Source of the DNA: a virus
DNA length: 64,000 bases
Direction: 5' to 3' (one strand)
IMG/VR virus record: IMGVR_UViG_3300020048_000023
Span: 32,001 to 96,000 of that record
Made by a program: the position numbers and the translations under genes. The notes beneath the pieces were generated by a model that was not told the DNA's origin, ran no database searches, and saw only the letters and a list, made by a program, of their open reading frames with translations. Below are positions 4,693 through 28,890 of the stretch, piece by piece (the first letter of the stretch is position 1; each line of letters opens with the position of its first letter).

Positions 4693-4710
4693 ACGTGAAA
4701 TAAGCCATTT

Positions 4711-4722
4711 TGTTCTTTGACA
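4711..4722 (+). promoter_or_regulatory. boxA-like antitermination element upstream of the CRISPR array
   Basis: TGTTCTTTGACA; the same motif occurs at 6312 (before the tRNAs) and 7685 (inside the tRNA cluster). Confidence 0.6.
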
Positions 4723-4767
4723 AATCTGGTGTAGTAAATTAATGTTTAAGGGGTTACACATAGGTAC

Positions 4768-6025
4768 ACTGTGCGTAACCCCATTCTGTAAGGAAATAAC
4801 AACATAATCGGTACATTTCTCTTAAACAATTGTACTGTGCGTAACCCCATTCTGTAAGGAAATAACAACTAACCATCGGGTTCTCCTTACCGTTCCCAAC
4901 TGTGCGTAACCCCATTCTGTAAGGAAATAGTAATACATATGCGGTTGAGTTTGCATTAGTTTTTATTGCGCATAAACCCATTCTGTAAGGAAATAATAAT
5001 CACTGACCAATTACCAGATCAGTCCAGTTAGAGTAACCCCATTCTGTAAGGAAATAACAACGAGTGATTTAAGGTGCCCGCCTCGAATACGACTGTGTGT
5101 AACCTCATTCTGTAAGGAAATAATAATTATGATAATTGAGCAGAGCCAGAGTCTTATACTGTGTGTAATCCCGTTCTGTAAGGAAATAATAAGTAGTAAA
5201 ATAAATGGCGCAATACCTTAAAAACTGCGCGTAACCCCATTCTGTAAGGAAATAATAATACACAAACGAAGGAGTAACCCATAACGTCAACTGTGTGTAA
5301 CCCTATTCTGTAAGGAAATAACAACATCGAAAAGATCAGGCAAATAGAAGCTTCAATTGTGCATAACCCAATTCTGTAAGGAAATAAAAACTTTTCGAAA
5401 GGGTTAAAGGTGTTGAACTATATGTAACCCTATTCTGTAAGGAAATAACAACTACCGACACCCTCGAACAAAGCTATTACCTACTGTGTGTAACCCTATT
5501 CTGTAAGGAAATAACAACTAATCGAAGTTGAACACATAAGCTCTAAAAACTGTGCATAACCCTATTCTGTAAGGAAATAACAACGACGGAATAATAAACC
5601 TCTGGTTGGAAAAACTGTGTGTAGCCCCATTCTGTAAGGAAATAATAATACATCGCAGGTAATCGCATTGCCAACTGTACGTAACCCTATTCTGTAAGGA
5701 AATAAAAATAGTTGTATTTGCACAGCGCCACAACCAGCAATGTGTGTAGCCCCATTCTGTAAGGAAATAACAATCAGAAACTCATTATGCTATGCTTAGC
5801 TAATATAACCTCATTCTGTAAGGAAATAAAAATAAGGAGCAATTCAAGAAGGTTGACTTAGATACGGTGCGTAACCACATTCTGTAAGGAAATAATAATA
5901 TGTACACCAGTGCAGTATCATCAGTGCACTGCGCATAACCCCATTCTGTAAGGAAATAATAATAATCAACACTTTAACCGAAAGATAAAACCATACATAA
6001 CCCTATTCTGTAAGGAAATTAAAAA
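4768..6025 (+). CRISPR. CRISPR array: 20 repeats of 36 nt (consensus ACTGTGYGTAACCCYATTCTGTAAGGAAATAAYAAY) and 19 spacers of 23-30 nt
   Basis: Repeats start at 4768, 4834, 4899, 4965, 5026, 5092, 5158, 5224, 5290, 5356, 5417, 5483, 5549, 5614, 5674, 5739, 5798, 5864, 5928 and 5990. Invariant core TTCTGTAAGGAAAT; unique spacers. Orientation is inferred from the cas genes and boxA. Confidence 0.97.
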
Positions 6026-6123: not shown

Positions 6124-6249
6124 ATGAAAAAGATCACCTACATAACCAGTTCCAATAACCTTATTCTGAAAGGAAATAACAATAGTTGTTTGGAAGCATC
6201 GTCAGAGGCGTTAGCCACTACGAATGGAATCGGTATGTACGTGAGGTAA
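6124..6249 (+). CDS. 41-aa putative attenuator leader peptide MKKITYITSSNNLILKGNNNSCLEASSEALATTNGIGMYVR
   Basis: ATG 6124 to TAA 6249, between the promoter and a terminator; contains the antiterminator strand and a run of codons matching the downstream tRNAs. Confidence 0.75.
   Translation: MKKITYITSSNNLILKGNNNSCLEASSEALATTNGIGMYVR
6148..6183 (+). repeat. Isolated degenerate CRISPR repeat inside the leader ORF
   Basis: TAACCTTATTCTGAAAGGAAATAACAAT matches about 25 of the last 28 nt of the array repeat. Confidence 0.85.
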
Positions 6250-7359: not shown

Positions 7360-7447
7360 GGAAGATGAAACTGGCGTGGGCTGGTCGCGGTCTTGAAAAC
7401 CGAGGGGACGGGTAAAACTGTCTGGTAATCGTGCTATCCTTCTTCCG
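7360..7447 (+). tRNA. tRNA-Ser(TGA), non-canonical 8/4 fold
   Basis: GCGGT-CTTGAAA-ACCGA; 8-nt acceptor GGAAGATG/CTTCTTCC; 4-bp T stem GGTA-ATCGTGC-TATC; long variable arm; G73. Confidence 0.75.
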
Positions 7448-9139: not shown

Positions 9140-9224
9140 GGAAGATTGACCGAGTGGAAAGGTACCCGCCTCGAAAGCGGTGGTCGGGGTAATTCCCGCG
9201 CAGTTTCGATCACTGCATCTTCCG
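9140..9224 (+). tRNA. tRNA-Ser(CGA)
   Basis: CCCGC-CTCGAAA-GCGGT; acceptor GGAAGAT/ATCTTCC; G73; long variable arm. Confidence 0.88.
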
Positions 9225-9281
9225 CAAAATTTTATTTGGTTATTACTATTTTTAGTTTTATATTTGCAAAAAAATATTTAT

Positions 9282-9872
9282 ATGATGGCTCGGGAACCTA
9301 TGAAAACCACTAAAAAGCAAATTGTTGCTTATTGGGTAAATAAAGGTATTGACGAATGTGAGTTAAATTTTGACTGGTCTGAAGCTGATGGTGTGTGCTG
9401 GAATTGCGGGCATTTAACAAAACACGCTCAAAGATGCCATATCATACCTGATATGTTAGGTGGTGAAGATACACCAAGTAATTACGTTTTATTATGTGAA
9501 GAATGTCACGAAGAAGCCCCGAATATAAATAATTCGGAAGCTATGTGGGATTGGATTAAACACAATAAAAACGATTTTGGTATGTATAATACTTATAAAG
9601 CGTTTAAAGCGTTTAAAGCATTTAAAAAACGAAATGGATTTGACTTTTTTGAAAAAGCGATATACATCACAAATTTTGCTGAATTATTTGTTAATGGGTT
9701 TAAAAATATTGGACTGCACGGAGCGAAGCTAACCATTAGTACTTATATATATATGTTTGAAGATATAATAAAAAAAGGTATTTATAGTGATATCCCACAG
9801 AATATTGGTTTTTTTGAAATATCTGATTTAGTAGAAAAGTCAAATTTAGTGAAAAAGGAAGTACCGCAATAA
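9282..9872 (+). CDS. HNH endonuclease (start re-called)
   Basis: CWNCG..RCHIIP..LGG.D..NYVLLCEECH; lies downstream of the promoter at 9235-9266. Confidence 0.85.
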   Translation: MMAREPMKTTKKQIVAYWVNKGIDECELNFDWSEADGVCWNCGHLTKHAQRCHIIPDMLGGEDTPSNYVLLCEECHEEAPNINNSEAMWDWIKHNKNDFGMYNTYKAFKAFKAFKKRNGFDFFEKAIYITNFAELFVNGFKNIGLHGAKLTISTYIYMFEDIIKKGIYSDIPQNIGFFEISDLVEKSNLVKKEVPQ

Positions 9873-9876
9873 CCGA

Positions 9877-10203
9877 TTATTTACCTAATAGTTTATTTGC
9901 TTCTTTTTCCCCAGCTTTAAGCTCGGTTTTTTGTTCGCCGTCCAGTTTAAGAAGCATGGCTTCAAATTCACCAACGTGTGTTTTTTCTTCTTTGGCTACG
10001 TCCAGCATAAGTTTTTTAACTTGTGGGTCTGTGGCTTTGCTTGCCATTTGTTCATATAGGCTAACGGCGTCCAGTTCGGAAATAATAGCCATACGCAGCA
10101 CCTGTTTATTAACATCTTTTCCTGATATGTCGGTGGGAACGGCTGAGGTTATCTCATTGAGCTGCCTAAACCTGTTCAGTTCTTCGAATAAAAGCTTATC
10201 CAT
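9877..10203 (-). CDS. Ferritin-like (encapsulin-cargo Flp / rubrerythrin-like) protein
   Basis: LRMAIISELDAVSLYEQ..DVAKEEKTHVGEF diiron motifs. Confidence 0.85.
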   Translation of the reverse strand: MDKLLFEELNRFRQLNEITSAVPTDISGKDVNKQVLRMAIISELDAVSLYEQMASKATDPQVKKLMLDVAKEEKTHVGEFEAMLLKLDGEQKTELKAGEKEANKLLGK

Positions 10204-13800: not shown

Positions 13801-16800
13801 TTACGTCCTACGAATCTTCCCGTCTTGGCAATTGTATAAATCGTAGGTAATACCCTTCTTACGCAGGGCGTTTCGGACGTCCGTAATATTCTTTTCCTGA
13901 TCATCGTAGAAAGCCACGTAGCGTATGCTCGGGTTTTCTTTTAGTATCTGTAGTATGCGTTCGCCTTTGTTCTGCATCGCATAGGACGCCATATTCAGGG
14001 CGTCAGGGTTTATCCTGTTTAATCTGAGTACCCGTTTAACTTGTCGTTCCAGCGTATCCAGCCTGTTAGTCATAACCACAACCATTGTATCGGATCGGCG
14101 CTGTTCGTCGCGCATTTGGTTGAATACTGGGGCTATAGCTGTAATTTCAAAGACGTTGGTATCTAAGCTTTCAGGCACGCTCCACCAAGCTTTTTCGCTC
14201 GGGAAATCGCCACCTGTTTTTTGTTTGTATTCTTCCCTGCCGAACTCGGGCATAGGGCTATTGATAAGCGTGCTATCCATATCAAACAATACCAATCTCT
14301 TTAGCTGGCTTCTCTGTGCTTCCATAATTGCTTCTTGTAGTTGTTGTTTTGTAAACTTTGTTTTTTTCTCTTCCGCCTGTAGTTTAAACATTTGCTTTAT
14401 CTGGGCAATTTGCTTGGGATAGAAATATTGCTGCAAGGCGTATTCATCATTATTTTTTACAATATATTCGATGAATTGATCAACGCTCCATTGGCGTTTT
14501 TCGAGCTCTGATTTAAGACGATCCATATTCAGATCGTCATTTGGTTGGAATAACTTGTTGATCTTATCGTAATATTTATCACCCTTACGCACCAAATCTT
14601 TGGTATATTTTTGTAAGAAATCCTTACGGCTCATTCTAACCCATTGACCGCCCCATCTATCGTTTAGAAGTAGTGCTTCATTAACCCAAACGGCGCGTAT
14701 CATATTGGGGTTTAAGTTGCCTATGAATAACGCCTGCTTTTCAGCATTTTGGAATAATGTTTGACCAAGTTCTGGTCTTTGGCTTTGTGATATGGCTGGG
14801 TATGGACTTGCCTGATACCTACCCCTGTTTTGTATGCGTTGTGCTTCGCGTTCTTCATCATTTGAAAAACCACTGGTGTAGTCACCCTGTACAAAATAAG
14901 AGCCACCGCCAGCCCATACTGGTGCTTCAAGGTTTGAAACCTTTGTGGCGAATTCTATGATAATACCTGAGCCAGCAAATTCCTTTTTAACTATGTTAAA
15001 ATCAATACTAACGAATAATCCTTTTGGGTTATTAACATTTTCATAACTATAAATTCTACTAACATTTTCCTGACCAGACAGCCCAAACGTTATCGCTAAC
15101 TTGGCGTCAGTTGTGCTATGCCTGCTAAATCCGTGATATACTATCAGAGTTTCATCGTCGTTTATTGGCTCCATTGATTTAACATCGTAGTTTTTGTAGT
15201 TTTCGTGGCGAACTTCTAATATGGTCTTGGTTATATTTTCTACAATATTTTTGGTATAATTCTTTTTAGATTCATTCCAGTATTCGCTATCGTCATATTG
15301 TTCTGGTTTTTCACCGTACAAGAAAAATCGCTTAATAGCTTCGATTATCATATCTGTTGGTGTATCTTCCTCAAATCTAAGGTAAGTTTGTTCATCACCA
15401 TAAACGTCAATTAGGCTTTCACCTCGTTTTTGCTGAAAAAATCTACGTAGTTGGGTAAATTGGTCTTGCGTCGGCATTGAACGCATTTCTATATTACCAG
15501 ATTCTGGTATAACACGAATGAAGCCCATATCGAGAGCGATATATAACCATTTTGAGAACGAGTTCTCATAAGCCTTTCCGTTATATAACCCCCAATCTAT
15601 TGGTAAATTCTCAATAGTACCCATAATATTCCTATGGTCATTTCCACCAGCGCCGCGTATATTAATGCAATACCCACTTGGTGAAATATACCCACATTGG
15701 GTAACATTTGTTTCGCCGTATTCGGCTAATATAGCTTTCTCTACCTTGAGTATGTCGTAGTCCTTGAACTGCTGCTGTGGCGCTTCGTGGAGTTTTTGCT
15801 CGAATATCTCAGTGCGGGTAAAGTTATTAACGTGATCTTCAAACTCAAATGTTTTACGGTTTATTTCGTTTATGATCGCATCAATGTCTGCTTGCTGGTA
15901 GGTAGACGTTTCGGGAACCATTAGTTCCTTATGGTACGAATACTTATCGTTCAGCATATTGAACGCCGTCTGCATAACAAACCGTTCCATATCAGAGCCA
16001 AACGTGTCGGGTATATCAAAGAAAATCTGGTTTTTCAGTGTGAAGTTATACCATTTCTTTTCGTTGAAGTTTCGGTAGCTCATTTTGAACTCAGACATAA
16101 TAGCCACGTTAGTTAGGGTCACCTGCTGGTTATGCCAATATACATCGGCTTTACCAATTCTCTTACTTAGCTGGAAGTGGTCGTAGTTCTCTTCAGGGAA
16201 TTCGTTATACTTAGCCAGCGACGGTACACGCTGTTTAACCTGTTGTACCAGAGCTTCGAAATTACCATCCAGATTACCCTCGGCTTCATTTAACGACTCA
16301 CGGTTTTTGTAAACTGGGTCAGGAATCCTTTGGTGTATAAATTCGATACTTGGATTCTTTTGTCTGGCTAATGTTAAACCGTTTTTTATTTTAGCAAGCA
16401 TTTCACGCCTACCGTTAATATCAGTATCAAAATTATTGGGGTATAATTCACCTAACTTAAATGCGTCAGTATTGCCAGCCCTTTGAACTGGAATCAACAC
16501 ATCGGGGCTTTTATATATTAGACCGTAATCTGTTGGAAAACGCATATTCAATTTATTGTTCACCCATTGAATTATTTCATTATGAAAATATCCAGTGCCA
16601 TTTATAACATATAAATCACCAGTCTTAGCATCAATAAAACCCCTAATATTTTGTATTAAATTTCTGATTGACTTTGGGTTTTTAAATGCTTCTATAGTTT
16701 CAATATCGTCGCCGTTATTGATATAATTAACTACACCCAAAAAATCTTCACGCAATATTTTAGCCGTAAGCTCTTGTATTTTCTGTGGAGTATTAGTTAT

Positions 16801-19800
16801 TTGGTTAGGGTACCTGTTAGCCATTTTTAATTTAACCTCGCCGTCGTCATCGCGGAATTGATCAAAATATTCGATCTGTTGCTTGGCTTCCGACAGCTTC
16901 CCGTCGATCAAGTTAAAAATTAGTTGCAACGCCACCTTTTGCGCTTCTGTTACCACTGGCTGTATTTCATAGGCGTGGCGCAGGGCTTTTAAATTATCAG
17001 CATTCAATATTTTGAGCGTGCTGTACTTGTCGTCGTAATGCAGTCTATTTTCGTTTCCGAAGGCATTAATAAATGATTCGATTTTATTAATCTTTTCGAA
17101 TATATAATTTCCATCCAAAAATTGGTTATGGTATTTACCCAATTCCCGCAATATGTCGCCAGCGTTTTCAAACCTATATCTCCACTGATTACCACCAGCT
17201 CCATTCCAAGATGTATGTATTATTTTTTCGGCGTGTCTGTCTTGAAATTCGTATACGTCTGGTATATTATTGCTATTTTCTTTGAGTATTTTAACCGCAA
17301 TCTCGCGTATTTTCTGCGGGGTTGACTTGTACTTATCGAAGTTTTGCTGTATGTAGCCCATAACGGCATCACGGGTGTTTTCAAGTTTATCACCGTAGAT
17401 AAGATTCAATAAATCGGTGTTTAGCTGACCGTGCTGACCACCAGTAATACCCATAGCGTCAATTTCGCCCCCTGTAACGGCTAAATCAGCCGCTTTGCGG
17501 GGGTATTTTTCTTCTGGATGCATTGATGCGTCTTTTAGCTTATCTTGCACCACAAAGCTTCCTACGGCTTTTGGATCGATTTTATTGACTGCGTTCATTA
17601 GCCATCTTTCCTCAGCTGGCGTATTGATCTCTTTTCGGGTCAATTCAAAGGCTGTAATAATCTTTGACAGGTTGCCCCAGTTGCCGAAACGTTGAACATA
17701 AAAACTTGACGGCGATTCCTTGGAATCCTTTGTAAGTAGGAAGATAAACTCAGCAAGCGTTTTAACCTTAGGGAACTGTTCGTATGTACCCCTAAAATCG
17801 TCGCCGAAAATAGCTCTATATAGCCCAGATGAAACCAACAATTCGGCTGATTGCTTAATGTCGGTTTTGTGAACTATTTTATCAAATTCAATAACGAAAC
17901 GCTCGTCTTTGATATGTTTAATGTCTTCAGCATTTTGCCTGATCATATTCCACGTATTCGGCTCAATGGTAAACCCGAACCGTGCGGCGAACTGTACGGC
18001 ACGCAGCATCCTGAGCGGGTCTTCCGCAAAGGCTTTTGGGCTGACCATTCGTATGATCTTGTTTTTAAGGTCTTCCCGACCGTTAAACGGGTCGTATATC
18101 TGACCGTGTATATCCTTGGCAATAGCGTTGATCGTGAAGTCGCGGCGTTCCAAGTCTTGATTAAGTGTTATACTCGGGTTGGCTGTAACTTCAAATCCGC
18201 CGTACCCCTGACCTACCTTCTTTTCGGTGCGGGCTAATGCTACGTCAATATCTTCTTTATCGCCGAACGGTTTGAACTTGATTACGGCAAAGCTACCGCC
18301 GACAAATCCAGTATCATTCTTTTCGTTCTTGGCTATATTACCAAATTTCGATAATATGTTAATGACAACCTGCGCATCCAAGCCAGCTACCATAATATCC
18401 AAGTCCTTGGAAACTGTGTTTAGGAAGGTATCGCGCACGGCTCCGCCAACCTGATATACCCTACCGCCAGCTTTTTCTATTTCGGTTACGAAAGGTAATT
18501 TTGCTATGTCGGTATGTTCTATCTCTCTAAGGTTTTCATCGCCAGCCCTGTCAGTCCAGCTGTCGTATGTTGCCTGAGCGCTCCCCACGTTGTATGGGAA
18601 GGTACTTACAATTTCTTTAAGTGCTAATTTTTTCACGATATCTTCTGTTACTGAATTTCCGTTGGCAAAGATAAACCATTTTGGTTTATCATACGGAAAT
18701 CTAAAATGATAACTTCCACGGTTTGGTATATCAATGAAAAATTGCGGTGCTGGGTATTTCGCCATAAATGGGTAGTATATTCTAAGTAGAATATTTTTGA
18801 TTCGTTCCTTGTCATTACCTTCAAGACTTAGGTGAGGCCCGCCGCTCAAAAATGCATAACTAAGCCTTATATATCCGTCATTAAATGCGCGTTTATATAG
18901 TTCAGCCAGATACCCATTTGTATCTTTTTCCATTCTTTTTACGTCTATTTTGTAAAGTGGGTCAAACAGGTCAAAGTGCGACCCCACTTTTATAAACTTA
19001 TTATCTGGGGTAATCCAGCAGAAATGCCGTGTTGTTAAATCAGGACTATATTTGTACTCTAATTCTTCTTTAAGTATATTTTCATTTACTTGTTGAACCT
19101 TATTTAAAAAATTATCGAGTGCTTCGACGTATTTGCTCGATAATTGATCACGAAATTTATTTAACAGTGCGCTCACATATATTTTTTGGTGTTCTGGCGT
19201 TAAGTTATGTAAACCGTCAACGGATAAAAATAACCTTAATTTAGGGAACTTTAACATATTCATATAATATGTAAATTTTTCTGGCTCTGTTAATGTGCTG
19301 AATAAAATGCGTGGCACGTTTGTAGAATTATTTAAAAAATATGGCTTTAATGACTGCTGTAATGATGGTGATAAACTATCGTATAGTAAATCTATTAATC
19401 TTTGACTATCAATCCTAAATTTGTTATCCAGTTCTATGATAATAGATGGTTTTTCTTTATCCGAAAACATACTAAATATTTGTAGATAGAAATTATTTTG
19501 TTCAGATAAAGCGCCTCTATCAAAAAATTGTTCATTCTGTTTATCAAAAAAGTCCATAATCTTATATAAGACATTTTTTCTATTTTCAAACGGCACAGCA
19601 TTCCACCTACGCGCTAATAACCTTTGTTCTTGGTCATAAGTATTAGAACGGGTGTCCTGATTTATTATTAATTTTTCTAATATTTTTTCTTTATCTTGGT
19701 CGTTCAGCAAACTAAATAATTTATCATTTTCTAAATGTTTGCGCTCAAACCCCATAAAAAATATTATTTCGTTAGAACTCAGAAATTCCAGTTCATTTGG

Positions 19801-21366
19801 GTTTATTCTAACACCCCAAGCTTCGTGGTTCATTATCTGGTCGGCTTTGATACGAGCCATATGTGCAAAGTATTTTATAAGCTTATCATTGCCGCGTATA
19901 GTATTAAATTTAGCATCAGATAACCCGAGCCCGAGTCCTATATACTTATTTTTTAGATCGTCTGGCAAAACACTAAACTTATAATCAGATATACCGTTAT
20001 TTTGGGTATTTGGGTATATTTCTAAAAATGCTTTTTTTTCTTCGTATGATAATGCGGCGAATTCTGAATCAGGTATATCTTTTTTAAACCGTTCATAATT
20101 ATTCTTTTCGGTGTCAGTTAATGGAACGGCTTTGAATAATTCCTGTAACCCATTAAGTTTAGGTTCAAGCTTAACTATATCATCCCATTTCATTTCTTTA
20201 TCACCGTCGTTATTGGCTGAGGTAACAACGTATCCATTGTATTGAGCCTGTACAACGAATATATGGTATTTATCTTGAAAGGTTCCACCTTTCCATTTTG
20301 CCAACTCAGCATTTGTTCTCTCAATGTTTTTAACAAAGTAGAACGCAGGCTCGTTTCCAGCGTACCTGTAGCTATTGTACATATTAGACGCGTCATTTCT
20401 GGCTATACACCAACCATACGGTATTTTACCCTTATATTGGATGCAAGCTTTCGCACTATCCGCGTAGAAAACTTCGATGCCATTTTGGTTATATATTAAT
20501 TTACCTGAAATTTCGGCGTTTTCTTCTGGATCGGTATCTATGTTAGTAGCAGTAGACCTTTGACCCCTAACATAATCTACTACCTGTTCTAACTCCCTAA
20601 AATCCTTATAAGCGTCTATGTTATTACGTTGGTTAACTGGTACAGATATATGAACATTCTGTGAGTATAATTCTCTCAGGTTTTTATTTTTTATTTCTTT
20701 AAAATAAGTCACATACTGATTTACAATATTTTGATCGAAACCCTGTTTTATGTAGTTAGCTTGTTGACTTTTAAAATCTTCTTCCAGCAACTTCTTTGTT
20801 AATGATTTAACAATAGACTCACTCATAGACCCACTATATTTTACGTGACCTGTTGACGGGTATAGGGCTGATGTTGTGTAGTCGCCACCGTCCAGCTGGT
20901 CATTCCATCGGTCGCCCATAGGAATAACGGTATCCGAGGTTAAATCAATCTCGCCAAGCACTTCACCAGCATCGCCGTTGCCCATAATGGTTCCGTGCAT
21001 AGTGAAACTCTTTATTTTCTTCCAGTTAGTGATTAAATTTGAGTTCTTTGGCGAGCCGCCTTGTGGGGTTGCCAATGTGACGTGAGCCAGTTTACCTTCA
21101 AGCGGGTATCCTTCTACCTTAACGGCAATAGCTTGGTTTGATAAACCGATATGTGTTGCTACTAAAGCTACTTGCTTGCGTGATCGTGCCAGTTCCCCAT
21201 ATGGTTCAGGAAAATCTTCGGAGTACATCGGGTCGTAGGAAAATTTGATGGTCATATGATCACCATACCAAACCCAATCCTTTGGTACAAAGCTCCTTAG
21301 CTTACCGAGAGCACCTTTGGAATTTTGGTCTAAAAATATGGCAATGTAGTTGGATAGGAAGCTCAT
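13801..21366 (-). CDS. 2521-aa multidomain protein: 2H phosphoesterase, CCA-adding/poly(A) polymerase, ART-like and HAD RNA-repair phosphatase domains plus unknown domains
   Basis: HMTI..HVTL (N-terminus); VGGAVRD..DLDI..DLERRDFTINA..EDPLRMLRAVQFAARF; VYHGF..GLFVS..IIEF; LVLFDMDSTL..MTNR..K..FYDD (C-terminus). Confidence 0.9.
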   Translation of the reverse strand: MSFLSNYIAIFLDQNSKGALGKLRSFVPKDWVWYGDHMTIKFSYDPMYSEDFPEPYGELARSRKQVALVATHIGLSNQAIAVKVEGYPLEGKLAHVTLATPQGGSPKNSNLITNWKKIKSFTMHGTIMGNGDAGEVLGEIDLTSDTVIPMGDRWNDQLDGGDYTTSALYPSTGHVKYSGSMSESIVKSLTKKLLEEDFKSQQANYIKQGFDQNIVNQYVTYFKEIKNKNLRELYSQNVHISVPVNQRNNIDAYKDFRELEQVVDYVRGQRSTATNIDTDPEENAEISGKLIYNQNGIEVFYADSAKACIQYKGKIPYGWCIARNDASNMYNSYRYAGNEPAFYFVKNIERTNAELAKWKGGTFQDKYHIFVVQAQYNGYVVTSANNDGDKEMKWDDIVKLEPKLNGLQELFKAVPLTDTEKNNYERFKKDIPDSEFAALSYEEKKAFLEIYPNTQNNGISDYKFSVLPDDLKNKYIGLGLGLSDAKFNTIRGNDKLIKYFAHMARIKADQIMNHEAWGVRINPNELEFLSSNEIIFFMGFERKHLENDKLFSLLNDQDKEKILEKLIINQDTRSNTYDQEQRLLARRWNAVPFENRKNVLYKIMDFFDKQNEQFFDRGALSEQNNFYLQIFSMFSDKEKPSIIIELDNKFRIDSQRLIDLLYDSLSPSLQQSLKPYFLNNSTNVPRILFSTLTEPEKFTYYMNMLKFPKLRLFLSVDGLHNLTPEHQKIYVSALLNKFRDQLSSKYVEALDNFLNKVQQVNENILKEELEYKYSPDLTTRHFCWITPDNKFIKVGSHFDLFDPLYKIDVKRMEKDTNGYLAELYKRAFNDGYIRLSYAFLSGGPHLSLEGNDKERIKNILLRIYYPFMAKYPAPQFFIDIPNRGSYHFRFPYDKPKWFIFANGNSVTEDIVKKLALKEIVSTFPYNVGSAQATYDSWTDRAGDENLREIEHTDIAKLPFVTEIEKAGGRVYQVGGAVRDTFLNTVSKDLDIMVAGLDAQVVINILSKFGNIAKNEKNDTGFVGGSFAVIKFKPFGDKEDIDVALARTEKKVGQGYGGFEVTANPSITLNQDLERRDFTINAIAKDIHGQIYDPFNGREDLKNKIIRMVSPKAFAEDPLRMLRAVQFAARFGFTIEPNTWNMIRQNAEDIKHIKDERFVIEFDKIVHKTDIKQSAELLVSSGLYRAIFGDDFRGTYEQFPKVKTLAEFIFLLTKDSKESPSSFYVQRFGNWGNLSKIITAFELTRKEINTPAEERWLMNAVNKIDPKAVGSFVVQDKLKDASMHPEEKYPRKAADLAVTGGEIDAMGITGGQHGQLNTDLLNLIYGDKLENTRDAVMGYIQQNFDKYKSTPQKIREIAVKILKENSNNIPDVYEFQDRHAEKIIHTSWNGAGGNQWRYRFENAGDILRELGKYHNQFLDGNYIFEKINKIESFINAFGNENRLHYDDKYSTLKILNADNLKALRHAYEIQPVVTEAQKVALQLIFNLIDGKLSEAKQQIEYFDQFRDDDGEVKLKMANRYPNQITNTPQKIQELTAKILREDFLGVVNYINNGDDIETIEAFKNPKSIRNLIQNIRGFIDAKTGDLYVINGTGYFHNEIIQWVNNKLNMRFPTDYGLIYKSPDVLIPVQRAGNTDAFKLGELYPNNFDTDINGRREMLAKIKNGLTLARQKNPSIEFIHQRIPDPVYKNRESLNEAEGNLDGNFEALVQQVKQRVPSLAKYNEFPEENYDHFQLSKRIGKADVYWHNQQVTLTNVAIMSEFKMSYRNFNEKKWYNFTLKNQIFFDIPDTFGSDMERFVMQTAFNMLNDKYSYHKELMVPETSTYQQADIDAIINEINRKTFEFEDHVNNFTRTEIFEQKLHEAPQQQFKDYDILKVEKAILAEYGETNVTQCGYISPSGYCINIRGAGGNDHRNIMGTIENLPIDWGLYNGKAYENSFSKWLYIALDMGFIRVIPESGNIEMRSMPTQDQFTQLRRFFQQKRGESLIDVYGDEQTYLRFEEDTPTDMIIEAIKRFFLYGEKPEQYDDSEYWNESKKNYTKNIVENITKTILEVRHENYKNYDVKSMEPINDDETLIVYHGFSRHSTTDAKLAITFGLSGQENVSRIYSYENVNNPKGLFVSIDFNIVKKEFAGSGIIIEFATKVSNLEAPVWAGGGSYFVQGDYTSGFSNDEEREAQRIQNRGRYQASPYPAISQSQRPELGQTLFQNAEKQALFIGNLNPNMIRAVWVNEALLLNDRWGGQWVRMSRKDFLQKYTKDLVRKGDKYYDKINKLFQPNDDLNMDRLKSELEKRQWSVDQFIEYIVKNNDEYALQQYFYPKQIAQIKQMFKLQAEEKKTKFTKQQLQEAIMEAQRSQLKRLVLFDMDSTLINSPMPEFGREEYKQKTGGDFPSEKAWWSVPESLDTNVFEITAIAPVFNQMRDEQRRSDTMVVVMTNRLDTLERQVKRVLRLNRINPDALNMASYAMQNKGERILQILKENPSIRYVAFYDDQEKNITDVRNALRKKGITYDLYNCQDGKIRRT

Positions 21367-27695: not shown

Positions 27696-28890
27696 CGAAG
27701 CCGTAGTGTATACGGATAACATCGAAGAAACCGCTGCATCGCAGTTAATCGAATTGTGTAGCCAAGAATTTATGTCTGGCTCCAAAGTTCGTGTTATGCC
27801 TGACGTGCACGCTGGTAAAGGCTGTGTTGTCGGTACTACATTGACCATCGGTGAAAAGATTGTCCCGAACTTAGTCGGCGTGGATATAGGGTGTGGTATG
27901 CATACAGTTAAGCTGGATGTACGTGCTCACGAAATTGACTTGGCTAAACTGGATAAGAATATCAAGAAGTTCGTACCGTTGGGAACCAGCGTGCGTAACG
28001 TGCCGTTCTTAAAGTACTACAACCAGATCAAGGACGAAATGGAATCTATGGCTTCGGCTGCCAATGTGGACTTAGTGCGAGCTAAGTTGAGTATGGGTAG
28101 CTTGGGTGGTGGTAACCACTTCATTGAGCTGGACGTTGACGACGACGGGTACGTGTACCTTGTTATCCATACTGGTAGCCGTAAGGCTGGTACCCAAGTA
28201 TGTGAATTTCACCAAGATTTGGCTTACAAGCTGTTAAAGCAGCGAGGTAAGGAAAAGAGCCAGCTTGTTGATTCGTTGAACTCACAGGGTCGTCAGAAGG
28301 AAATTCAGGCTGAGTTGAAGAAACTTGCGCCAGTTACGAATATCCCAAAAGCTCTGGCTTACTTGGAAGGTGATCAACTGAAGGCTTACCTGAATGATAT
28401 GGGCGTAATGCAGAAGTATGCCGACTTGAACCGTAAGGCTATCGCTGAAACGATTATAGTTGGTATGCGTTGGAAGGCGGTGGCATCGTTCACTACAATC
28501 CATAACTACATTGACTTGGATACTATGATTCTGCGTAAGGGTGCTATCTCAGCTCAGAGCGGTGAACTGGTACTTATCCCAATGAACAATGAAGACGGAT
28601 CGTTGATTTGTACAGGTAAGGGTAACCCAGATTGGAACTTCTCGGCGCCTCACGGTGCTGGTCGTTTAATGAGCCGTTCAAAGGCTAAGGCTTCCTTATC
28701 CTTAGAATTGTACCAGCAGGGGTTGAAGGATGCTGGCGTATACAGTACGACTGCCAACCAATCAACCTTAGACGAATCGAAGCAGGCTTACAAGCCAATC
28801 GACGAAATCATGGCTAACATTGGCGATACCGTAAATATCGTCAAGCGTATCAAACCTATTTTTAACATCAAGGCTGGGGACGAAGATTAA
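27670..28890 (+). CDS. rtcB: RtcB family 3'-phosphate RNA ligase
   Basis: MPDVHAGKG, VGVDIGCG, GSLGGGNHFIE, IHTGSR, HNYI, RKGA, SAPHGAGR. Confidence 0.96.
   Translation: MLTYKGKYNEAVVYTDNIEETAASQLIELCSQEFMSGSKVRVMPDVHAGKGCVVGTTLTIGEKIVPNLVGVDIGCGMHTVKLDVRAHEIDLAKLDKNIKKFVPLGTSVRNVPFLKYYNQIKDEMESMASAANVDLVRAKLSMGSLGGGNHFIELDVDDDGYVYLVIHTGSRKAGTQVCEFHQDLAYKLLKQRGKEKSQLVDSLNSQGRQKEIQAELKKLAPVTNIPKALAYLEGDQLKAYLNDMGVMQKYADLNRKAIAETIIVGMRWKAVASFTTIHNYIDLDTMILRKGAISAQSGELVLIPMNNEDGSLICTGKGNPDWNFSAPHGAGRLMSRSKAKASLSLELYQQGLKDAGVYSTTANQSTLDESKQAYKPIDEIMANIGDTVNIVKRIKPIFNIKAGDED

Follow-up and report, generated by a model that had tools for sequence, protein, structure and literature searches.

A phage-borne type I-B CRISPR array carries a spacer matching tRNA-Ser genes of related phages

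Spacer 5 of the CRISPR array described here is, as judged by sequence comparison, a true copy of a fragment of a tRNA-Ser gene of the kind carried by related phages, and we consider this origin to be settled. The array lies in a window of 64,000 nucleotides (bases 32001–96000 of one 160,910-bp virus record, 40% G+C) and adjoins a complete set of type I-B effector genes. The likeliest function of the spacer is the active exclusion of rival kin phages, a reading that we put at slightly better than even.

Phage-borne CRISPR systems are thought to serve conflicts between phages, but the source of an individual spacer is known in few cases. In the present array, a spacer can be traced to a specific gene, that of a serine tRNA, in sibling phages that have no CRISPR locus at the syntenic site. 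The resulting pair of alleles allows one to ask whether a phage type I-B system excludes kin, and whether phage tRNA clusters are contested by RNA-guided nucleases.

The CRISPR-Cas locus

The genes of the operon follow the order cas6-cas5-cas3-cas8b-cas7b, and all five frames are open (Table 1). PADLOC assigns all five products to type I-B models, and on the combined PADLOC, Pfam and NCBIfam matches the type I-B effector set is complete, consisting of a Cas3 with HD nuclease and helicase, Cas8b, Cas7, Cas5 and Cas6. The cas3 product matches the Pfam families Cas3-like_C_2, DEAD and HD, the NCBIfam model cas3_core (3e-56) and the PADLOC model Cas3b (2.5e-207). Pfam matches to Cas1 or Cas2 are absent from the 160.9-kb record, which is estimated to be 67% complete; control genomes were positive in the same searches. 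The cas1 and cas2 genes could lie in the missing part of the phage genome.

Table 1 Features of the CRISPR-Cas locus and of the tRNA-Ser region. Positions are those of the window, except for cas6 and cas5.
Feature	Position	Strand	Evidence or remark
cas6	L001:16734-17420		Just upstream of the window; PADLOC Cas6b, 1e-45
cas5	L001:17427-17981		Just upstream of the window; PADLOC Cas5b, 5e-43
cas3 (HD nuclease + helicase), 741 aa	1..2163	+	Gene start 63 nt before the window
cas8b (large subunit), 445 aa	2229..3566	+	PADLOC Cas8b, 2.7e-50
cas7b (backbone subunit), 379 aa	3553..4692	+	Length as called in the identical copy L124; PADLOC Cas7b, 1.8e-50
Leader, 75 nt, between cas7 and the first repeat	4693..4767	+	Same strand as the cas genes; read from the sequence
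CRISPR array, 20 repeats of 36 nt and 19 spacers of 23–30 nt	4768..6025	+	
Repeat 5, upstream of spacer 5	5026..5061	+	First 8 nt far from the consensus
Spacer 5, 30 nt	5062..5091	+	Between two repeats of the regular array
Repeat 6, downstream of spacer 5	5092..5127	+	
Own tRNA-Ser(CGA), allele A	9140..9225	+	ARAGORN; Rfam tRNA, 45 bits
Stretch of own tRNA resembling spacer 5	9152..9179	+	23/30 with a 2-nt gap; 20/30 ungapped
HNH endonuclease gene (195 aa), immediately downstream of allele A	9285..9872	+	Pfam HNH and HNH_5; gene call in L122

Almost every repeat in the array is different, and the differences are limited to the flanks of a 14-nt core. The core has no changes at 280 sites, while the flanks have 75 changes at 440 sites (17%). 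The changes are concentrated in the first 8 and the last 5 nt, with 56 transitions to 19 transversions (3:1), and the repeats nearest to the consensus are the three next to the leader. The core folds into a hairpin with a GUAA loop and a stem of 4 bp, and 8 nt separate it from the spacer. These 8 nt read ATAACAAC, with the last four or five positions varying between repeats. As far as sequence can tell, this is the layout expected of Cas6 cleavage that leaves an 8-nt handle. The invariance of the hairpin core is strong evidence that crRNA processing has been under selection, and the locus is thus not simply dead.

The array resembles the type I-B system of Haloferax volcanii (PMC3737343) in having cas6, cas5, cas3, cas8b and cas7, and in having repeats with a small hairpin followed by an 8-nt handle. 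It differs from it in the gene order (cas6-cas5-cas3-cas8-cas7) and in the lack of cas1 and cas2 from the incomplete record. Further differences are seen in the repeats, which do not have the usual I-B form of about 30 nt with an ATTGAAA-like 8-nt handle. Here, repeats of 36 nt alternate with spacers of 30 nt, whereas cellular relatives have about 30 and about 36 nt respectively; and the handle has an ACAAC-like ending that varies between repeats, whereas that of cellular relatives is TTGAAA-like. Of 401 sampled Bacteroidota genomes, 12 encode homologues of Cas7b with 30–40% identity. Six of the neighbourhoods were fetched, and in four of them there is an array close to the Cas7b homologue, with a period of 64–67 nt and repeats of 29–30 nt that have the usual I-B ending. 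The period of about 66 nt is therefore the same in the phage as in these loci, and only the split between repeat and spacer is different, so that the type I-B reading stands. A class-2-like array, considered for its geometry of 36 + 30 nt, was dropped on account of the shared period and of the hairpin and 8-nt handle, which fit processing by Cas6. A search of IMG/VR for two copies of the repeat core revealed no related arrays.

A lone 21st repeat, degenerate in sequence, is found at 6148–6183 of the window. It falls in the leader ORF of the tRNA operon, which has about 30 nt more than its counterpart at L100:3019-3200, is otherwise 95% identical to it, and remains in an open frame despite the extra nucleotides. 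By its sequence, the lone repeat looks like an insertion in this phage, whether by stray integration or as the remnant of an array.

An identical cas operon is present in a second sample (SRR7760390), in which the contig breaks at the array. In kin phages, the syntenic site, which runs from a gene for an ABC-like ATPase to the tRNA cluster, holds small ORFs or a TnpB gene, and cas genes are absent; for the sibling phage, none of the genes tabulated in this interval is of the size of a cas gene. The CRISPR locus is therefore a variable insert, which some members of the phage group have and which their siblings are without. The TnpB gene (OrfB_IS605 or Cas12f-like) is at 1130-2425 in both L100 and L101, in place of the CRISPR-Cas locus. 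RNA-guided nucleases seem to gather at this syntenic site.

Origin of spacer 5

Spacer 5 corresponds to positions 13 to about 41 of a tRNA-Ser, in the sense of the tRNA. It covers the D loop, the 3' strand of the D stem, and the anticodon stem-loop with its CGA. The preliminary description had placed it at 5062–5091, in an array of 19 spacers, and had aligned it with the tRNA-Ser(CGA) gene of the phage itself. Its position, its sequence and the number of spacers were confirmed, and the alignment was reproduced: 23 of 30 nt match, with a single 2-nt gap in the D loop and an exact 11-mer over the anticodon, and both ARAGORN and Rfam call the tRNA at 9140–9225. Without gaps, the alignment has a core of 16 matches in 17 nt at 9159–9175. 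The best ungapped match of spacer 5 anywhere in its own genome is 20/30, which is far from a near-perfect self-target.

Taken alone, this self-match is borderline with respect to chance. With strict scoring (+2/−3) it scores 29, a value matched by none of 150 shuffled spacers, and spacer 14 scores 30 elsewhere in the genome. With soft scoring, which admits the whole gapped alignment, the score is equalled by 27 of 300 shuffled spacers and by five other spacers of the array. The phage also has a tRNA-Ser(TGA) gene, at 7360–7446 of the window, which is missed by ARAGORN and is matched only by the Rfam tRNA-Sec model, at 29.5 bits and below threshold. It is non-canonical, and unrelated to spacer 5 over the relevant stretch.

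Stronger matches come from related phages. Relatives of this phage are almost absent from public viral collections (the 503-aa neighbour gene has none in IMG/VR), and the kin contigs were reached by way of neighbouring genes in a large protein collection. In a sibling phage, whose 503-aa neighbour protein is 99% identical to that of the carrier, the syntenic tRNA-Ser(CGA) gene matches spacer 5 at 26 of 30 positions without a gap. This sibling was found in three samples (L098, L099, L120 and L121), and a fourth is known from its gene table only. More distant kin (L100, L101, L106 and L107) also have a tRNA-Ser(CGA) gene at the syntenic place, and the tRNA-Ser(TGA) of L100 and L101, which in L100 is of canonical form, likewise gives an ungapped 26/30. 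The kin tRNAs are called as Ser(CGA) and Ser(TGA) by ARAGORN, and they are collinear with spacer 5, with CGA at the anticodon position. In the same 98 kb of kin DNA, shuffled versions of spacer 5 reach at most 23/30 (n = 300), and every other spacer of the array reaches 16–22. By our estimate, the number of matches of the 26/30 type expected in 98 kb is about 5e-6. Ungapped matches of 26/30, against a maximum of 23/30 for the shuffled spacers, show that spacer 5 was copied from a tRNA-Ser gene of the phage family.

It might still be asked whether an unrelated spacer merely happens to resemble tRNA genes. The self-match is within reach of shuffled spacers under soft scoring, and an unrelated SAR202 sequence also attains 23/30; but a chance resemblance would have to account for two kin tRNA-Ser genes that each match at 26/30 without gaps and in step with the tRNA structure, at the very low expected number given above. 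We have rejected chance on the strength of the kin matches and of the shuffle control, and regard it as almost certainly wrong. The view of the preliminary description, that spacer 5 is a fragment of a tRNA-Ser gene similar but not identical to the phage's own copy, is upheld. A best match in a non-tRNA context would have spoken against that view, and the best match proves to be a kin tRNA-Ser gene.

The mismatches between spacer 5 and the sibling gene (allele B) are at positions 6, 14, 27 and 28, so that the seed positions 1–5 and 7–10 are intact. Position 14 is T in the own allele of the phage and in L100, and an allele matching at 27/30 would therefore need only states that are already seen in the family. 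The changes at positions 6, 27 and 28 are private changes of the spacer, and the tRNA positions that they affect (G19, and the 38/39 side of the anticodon arm) are conserved in all family alleles. To judge from this pattern, they look like mutations of the spacer after its capture. The triplets found 5' of the match are GCT, TCT, TCC and ACC; they vary, and come from the one spacer with a source. A continuation of the match beyond the spacer was considered and set aside, as only 3 of the 6 nt with which the next repeat begins agree. No match to spacer 5 was found in the 21 kb that were read of L097 (ENA ERZ27297473), a 213.6-kb contig. This larger relative is syntenic, and its RtcB is 75% identical.

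Alleles of the tRNA-Ser gene

At the tRNA-Ser(CGA) site, the family has three alleles. Allele A is carried by the phage itself, by the same phage in another sample (L122) and by L107. Compared with kin, it lacks 2 nt of the D loop, its variable and T arms are different, and its 3' half is unalignable with the kin alleles. Allele B, of the sibling, and allele C, of L100, L101 and L106, which matches spacer 5 at 23/30, both have a long D loop and a canonical T arm. Alleles A and B pass the Rfam threshold for tRNA, with 45 and 57 bits respectively.

In each of its occurrences allele A is followed by the HNH endonuclease gene, which is found only where allele A is present: neither allele B nor allele C is accompanied by one, and L098, L100 and L106 have none. 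The stretch 9184–9883 of the window, made up of the 3' half of the tRNA and the HNH gene, replaces 38 nt in the sibling (L098:1690-1727), and the flanks on both sides align at 87–89%. Its counterpart in L107 is at L107:10329-11077. Between the phage and L107, allele A is identical at 84 of 86 positions, the HNH protein beside it is 88% identical, and the flanks are only about 84% identical. Judged by its sequence context, the 3' half of the tRNA together with the HNH gene resembles a homing-endonuclease cassette with a tRNA version of its own.

Searches for a protospacer

An identified protospacer usually has no more than 2–3 mismatches. The best match to spacer 5 in foreign DNA is 26/30, with 4 mismatches, to the kin tRNA-Ser genes, and is thus not a near-perfect one. 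No protospacer matching at 30/30 or 29/30 was found in IMG/VR, in GenBank phages, in the GTDB species genomes (searched with a core pattern), in metagenome contigs or in the kin loci that were fetched. In IMG/VR, neither the exact 30-mer nor two tolerant patterns of spacer 5 gave a match. Searches of GenBank phages, with spacer 5 alone or with the whole array, gave matches at the level of chance or none.

An 18-nt core pattern was run against one genome from each of 185,579 GTDB species and gave 94 matches, all of them in GC-rich DNA other than tRNA genes. The metagenome contigs contain an exact 21-mer of the spacer in a single stretch of SAR202-like DNA, which is of the same sequence type as was found in the GTDB scan. 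This match was judged to be due to chance: it amounts to 23/30, the 5' third is mismatched and there is no tRNA.

Possible function of spacer 5

We propose that spacer 5 serves to exclude kin phages. Its source would be a canonical tRNA-Ser gene with the long D loop, either in a related phage or as an earlier allele in the carrier's own lineage. The array would be transcribed on the + strand along with the cas operon, and Cas6 would cut at the base of the invariant repeat hairpin to leave an 8-nt 5' handle, after which the crRNA would be loaded into a Cascade of Cas8b, Cas7 and Cas5. If the same cell is co-infected by a kin phage whose tRNA-Ser allele matches, Cascade would form an R-loop on the gene and recruit Cas3, and the rival genome would be degraded. 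The HNH-linked allele of the carrier would be exempt, as it lacks 2 nt in crRNA positions 7–9. We infer that the array is expressed, that there is a PAM, and that a target allele that matches sufficiently well is in circulation at present. The other 18 spacers are without matches in the collections searched, so that neither a PAM nor a theme of targeting can be derived from them. Candidate rivals are provided by the sibling phage, which has a neighbour gene product 99% identical to that of the carrier, allele B, no HNH gene, and no cas genes at the syntenic site.

The type I-B system of Haloferax needs pairing at positions 1–5 and 7–10 of the guide; a mismatch at position 6 is tolerated and deletions are not (PMC3737343). 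The own allele of the phage lacks 2 nt within positions 7–9 of this seed, and has substitutions in addition. This deletion puts the pairing out of register after position 5, and so the own tRNA gene would escape, in agreement with the earlier suggestion that mismatches protect it. For allele B, the seed is intact and there are mismatches at positions 14, 27 and 28. In Haloferax, some double mismatches outside the seed abolish interference (PMC3737343), which makes it doubtful that crRNA 5 would cut this allele. The proposal of the preliminary description, that the spacer targets the tRNA-Ser gene of a competitor or of the host, thus stands in part: the closest relatives of the spacer are tRNA-Ser genes of related phages, but the best match is 26/30 and there is no near-perfect protospacer. 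Active targeting is something that we infer, and the host is the less likely target.

The main competing view is that spacer 5 is a decayed relic. It would then be an old capture from a kin or ancestral tRNA-Ser gene, in an array that no longer acquires and in which spacers and repeat flanks have drifted, and it would be passive, with no effective target. We consider this somewhat unlikely, though it deserves serious attention. It would explain why three private substitutions are seen at tRNA positions that are conserved in every family allele, and why the repeat flanks have diverged by 17%, with an excess of transitions (56:19). It also accords with the lack of cas1 and cas2 in the record, which is an estimated 67% complete, with the lack of a perfect match to any of the 19 spacers in the collections searched, and with the resemblance of spacer 14 to a similarly eroded copy of rtcB (18/24). 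Nevertheless, a dead locus would not keep both a 14-nt core that is untouched in all 20 repeats and five open cas genes. The private changes moreover lie at position 6 and at the PAM-distal end, the parts of a type I guide that are the most forgiving of mismatches, and missing targets mean little when the databases hold so few relatives. If the array is a relic, it would show how a phage array decays with its hairpin core retained.

Two further readings look for the target inside the infected cell. The protospacer could be the tRNA-Ser(CGA) gene of the host, which the phage would cut or block while supplying its own serine tRNAs. Huge phages have been reported to aim spacers at host translation genes (PMC7162821), this phage does have its own set of Ser tRNAs, and the tRNA-Ser genes of Bacteroidota share the D-arm motif. 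Among the 401 sampled genomes, however, these genes match spacer 5 at no more than 23–24 of 30 positions, and a pattern to which allele B conforms exactly has no match in any of the 401, even with 2 mismatches allowed. None of the 94 core matches among the 185,579 GTDB species is in a tRNA-Ser gene, and in its anticodon stem the spacer agrees with the phage family and not with cellular tRNAs. A host target therefore seems improbable to us. Alternatively, the crRNA might bind the phage's own tRNA-Ser(CGA) gene imperfectly and dampen its transcription without cutting, as had been suggested in the preliminary description. The core match of 16/17 to this gene is in keeping with such a role, and repression free of cleavage has been suggested for some phage systems (PMC7162821). 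The two registers in which the guide can be placed both tell against it: in that of the core match there is no pairing at guide positions 1–9, and in that of the 5' match only 5 nt pair, owing to the 2-nt deletion, while I-B recognition needs the seed at 1–5 and 7–10 and is intolerant of deletions (PMC3737343). Since Cas3 is intact, stable binding would also mean self-cleavage. Self-regulation is thus not supported, and we hold it to be very improbable. Exclusion of kin phages remains the reading that we prefer for spacer 5.

Relation to known systems

CRISPR-Cas loci without Cas1, Cas2 and Cas4, with spacers against other phages, have been described in huge phages (Al-Shayeb et al. 2020, PMC7162821). 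The present locus resembles them in that the virus record is rich in tRNA and RNA-repair genes, that only the interference module is present, and that one spacer matches a gene of related phages. It differs in having 20 repeats, compared with a median of six, and in that these are degenerate around a fixed core. The one source that was identified is a gene for a tRNA, not one with a structural or regulatory role, and the match to it is imperfect (26/30).

Mini-arrays of archaeal viruses, studied by Medvedeva and colleagues in 2019, reportedly carry spacers against close relatives, in what is said to be superinfection exclusion. They are similar to the present case in being borne by a virus and in having a spacer that matches kin viruses and not the carrier. 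[quoted passage not shown]

A comparison can also be made with phage T4, where the homing endonuclease SegB is encoded in the tRNA gene cluster and causes the tRNA region to be inherited preferentially in mixed infections (PMC2330249). As in T4, there is a nuclease gene among the phage tRNA genes, and the adjoining tRNA region is sharply different between related phages. The free-standing nuclease is of the HNH type here, while SegB is of the GIY-YIG type, and the carrier phage has in addition an RNA-guided nuclease system, with a guide against a rival version of the same tRNA gene. For T4-like phages, we know of no report of an RNA-guided nuclease with a guide against a rival tRNA allele.

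A further idea is that two unrelated nucleases act against the rival tRNA-Ser locus, the HNH endonuclease and Cascade-Cas3 with its guide. The break would be repaired from the copy of the carrier, and this would spread the resistant allele, the HNH gene, and perhaps the CRISPR locus 3–4 kb away. We give this idea only a small chance of being right. If it were true, a phage tRNA cluster would be the scene of RNA-guided marker exclusion or homing. Earlier work has described phage arrays that lack adaptation genes and have spacers against other phages (PMC7162821), as well as contests for phage tRNA clusters that are driven by a nuclease, SegB, in T4 (PMC2330249); what is distinctive here is that the guide and the HNH gene concern the same tRNA locus.

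Other spacers and neighbouring genes

The 18 other spacers had no matches in GenBank phages, the kin loci or the 401 Bacteroidota genomes. Spacers 1–3, with every sixth base freed, found nothing in IMG/VR. The whole array gave marginal matches only against the 401 Bacteroidota genomes, some of them across the borders between repeat and spacer.

Within the phage itself, spacer 14 (window 5650–5673) resembles a stretch of the phage's own rtcB gene, which encodes an RNA ligase, at 27737–27756; the agreement is 18 of 20 nt there and 18/24 overall. The site in rtcB is identical in a relative with 96% identity (L103), and relatives with 75% identity match worse or no better. Spacer 14 may be either an eroded rtcB spacer or a product of chance, for which about 0.1 such matches are expected.

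The window also encodes an RNA-repair polyprotein of 2521 aa, in a single frame at 13801–21366 on the − strand. In kin, the same region is called as three genes, of 1679, 291 and 453 aa in the sibling (L098:5805-13083) and of 1037, 282 and 445 aa in L100 (L100:11860-17188). The middle gene of the sibling has a faint match to the DUF559 endonuclease family.
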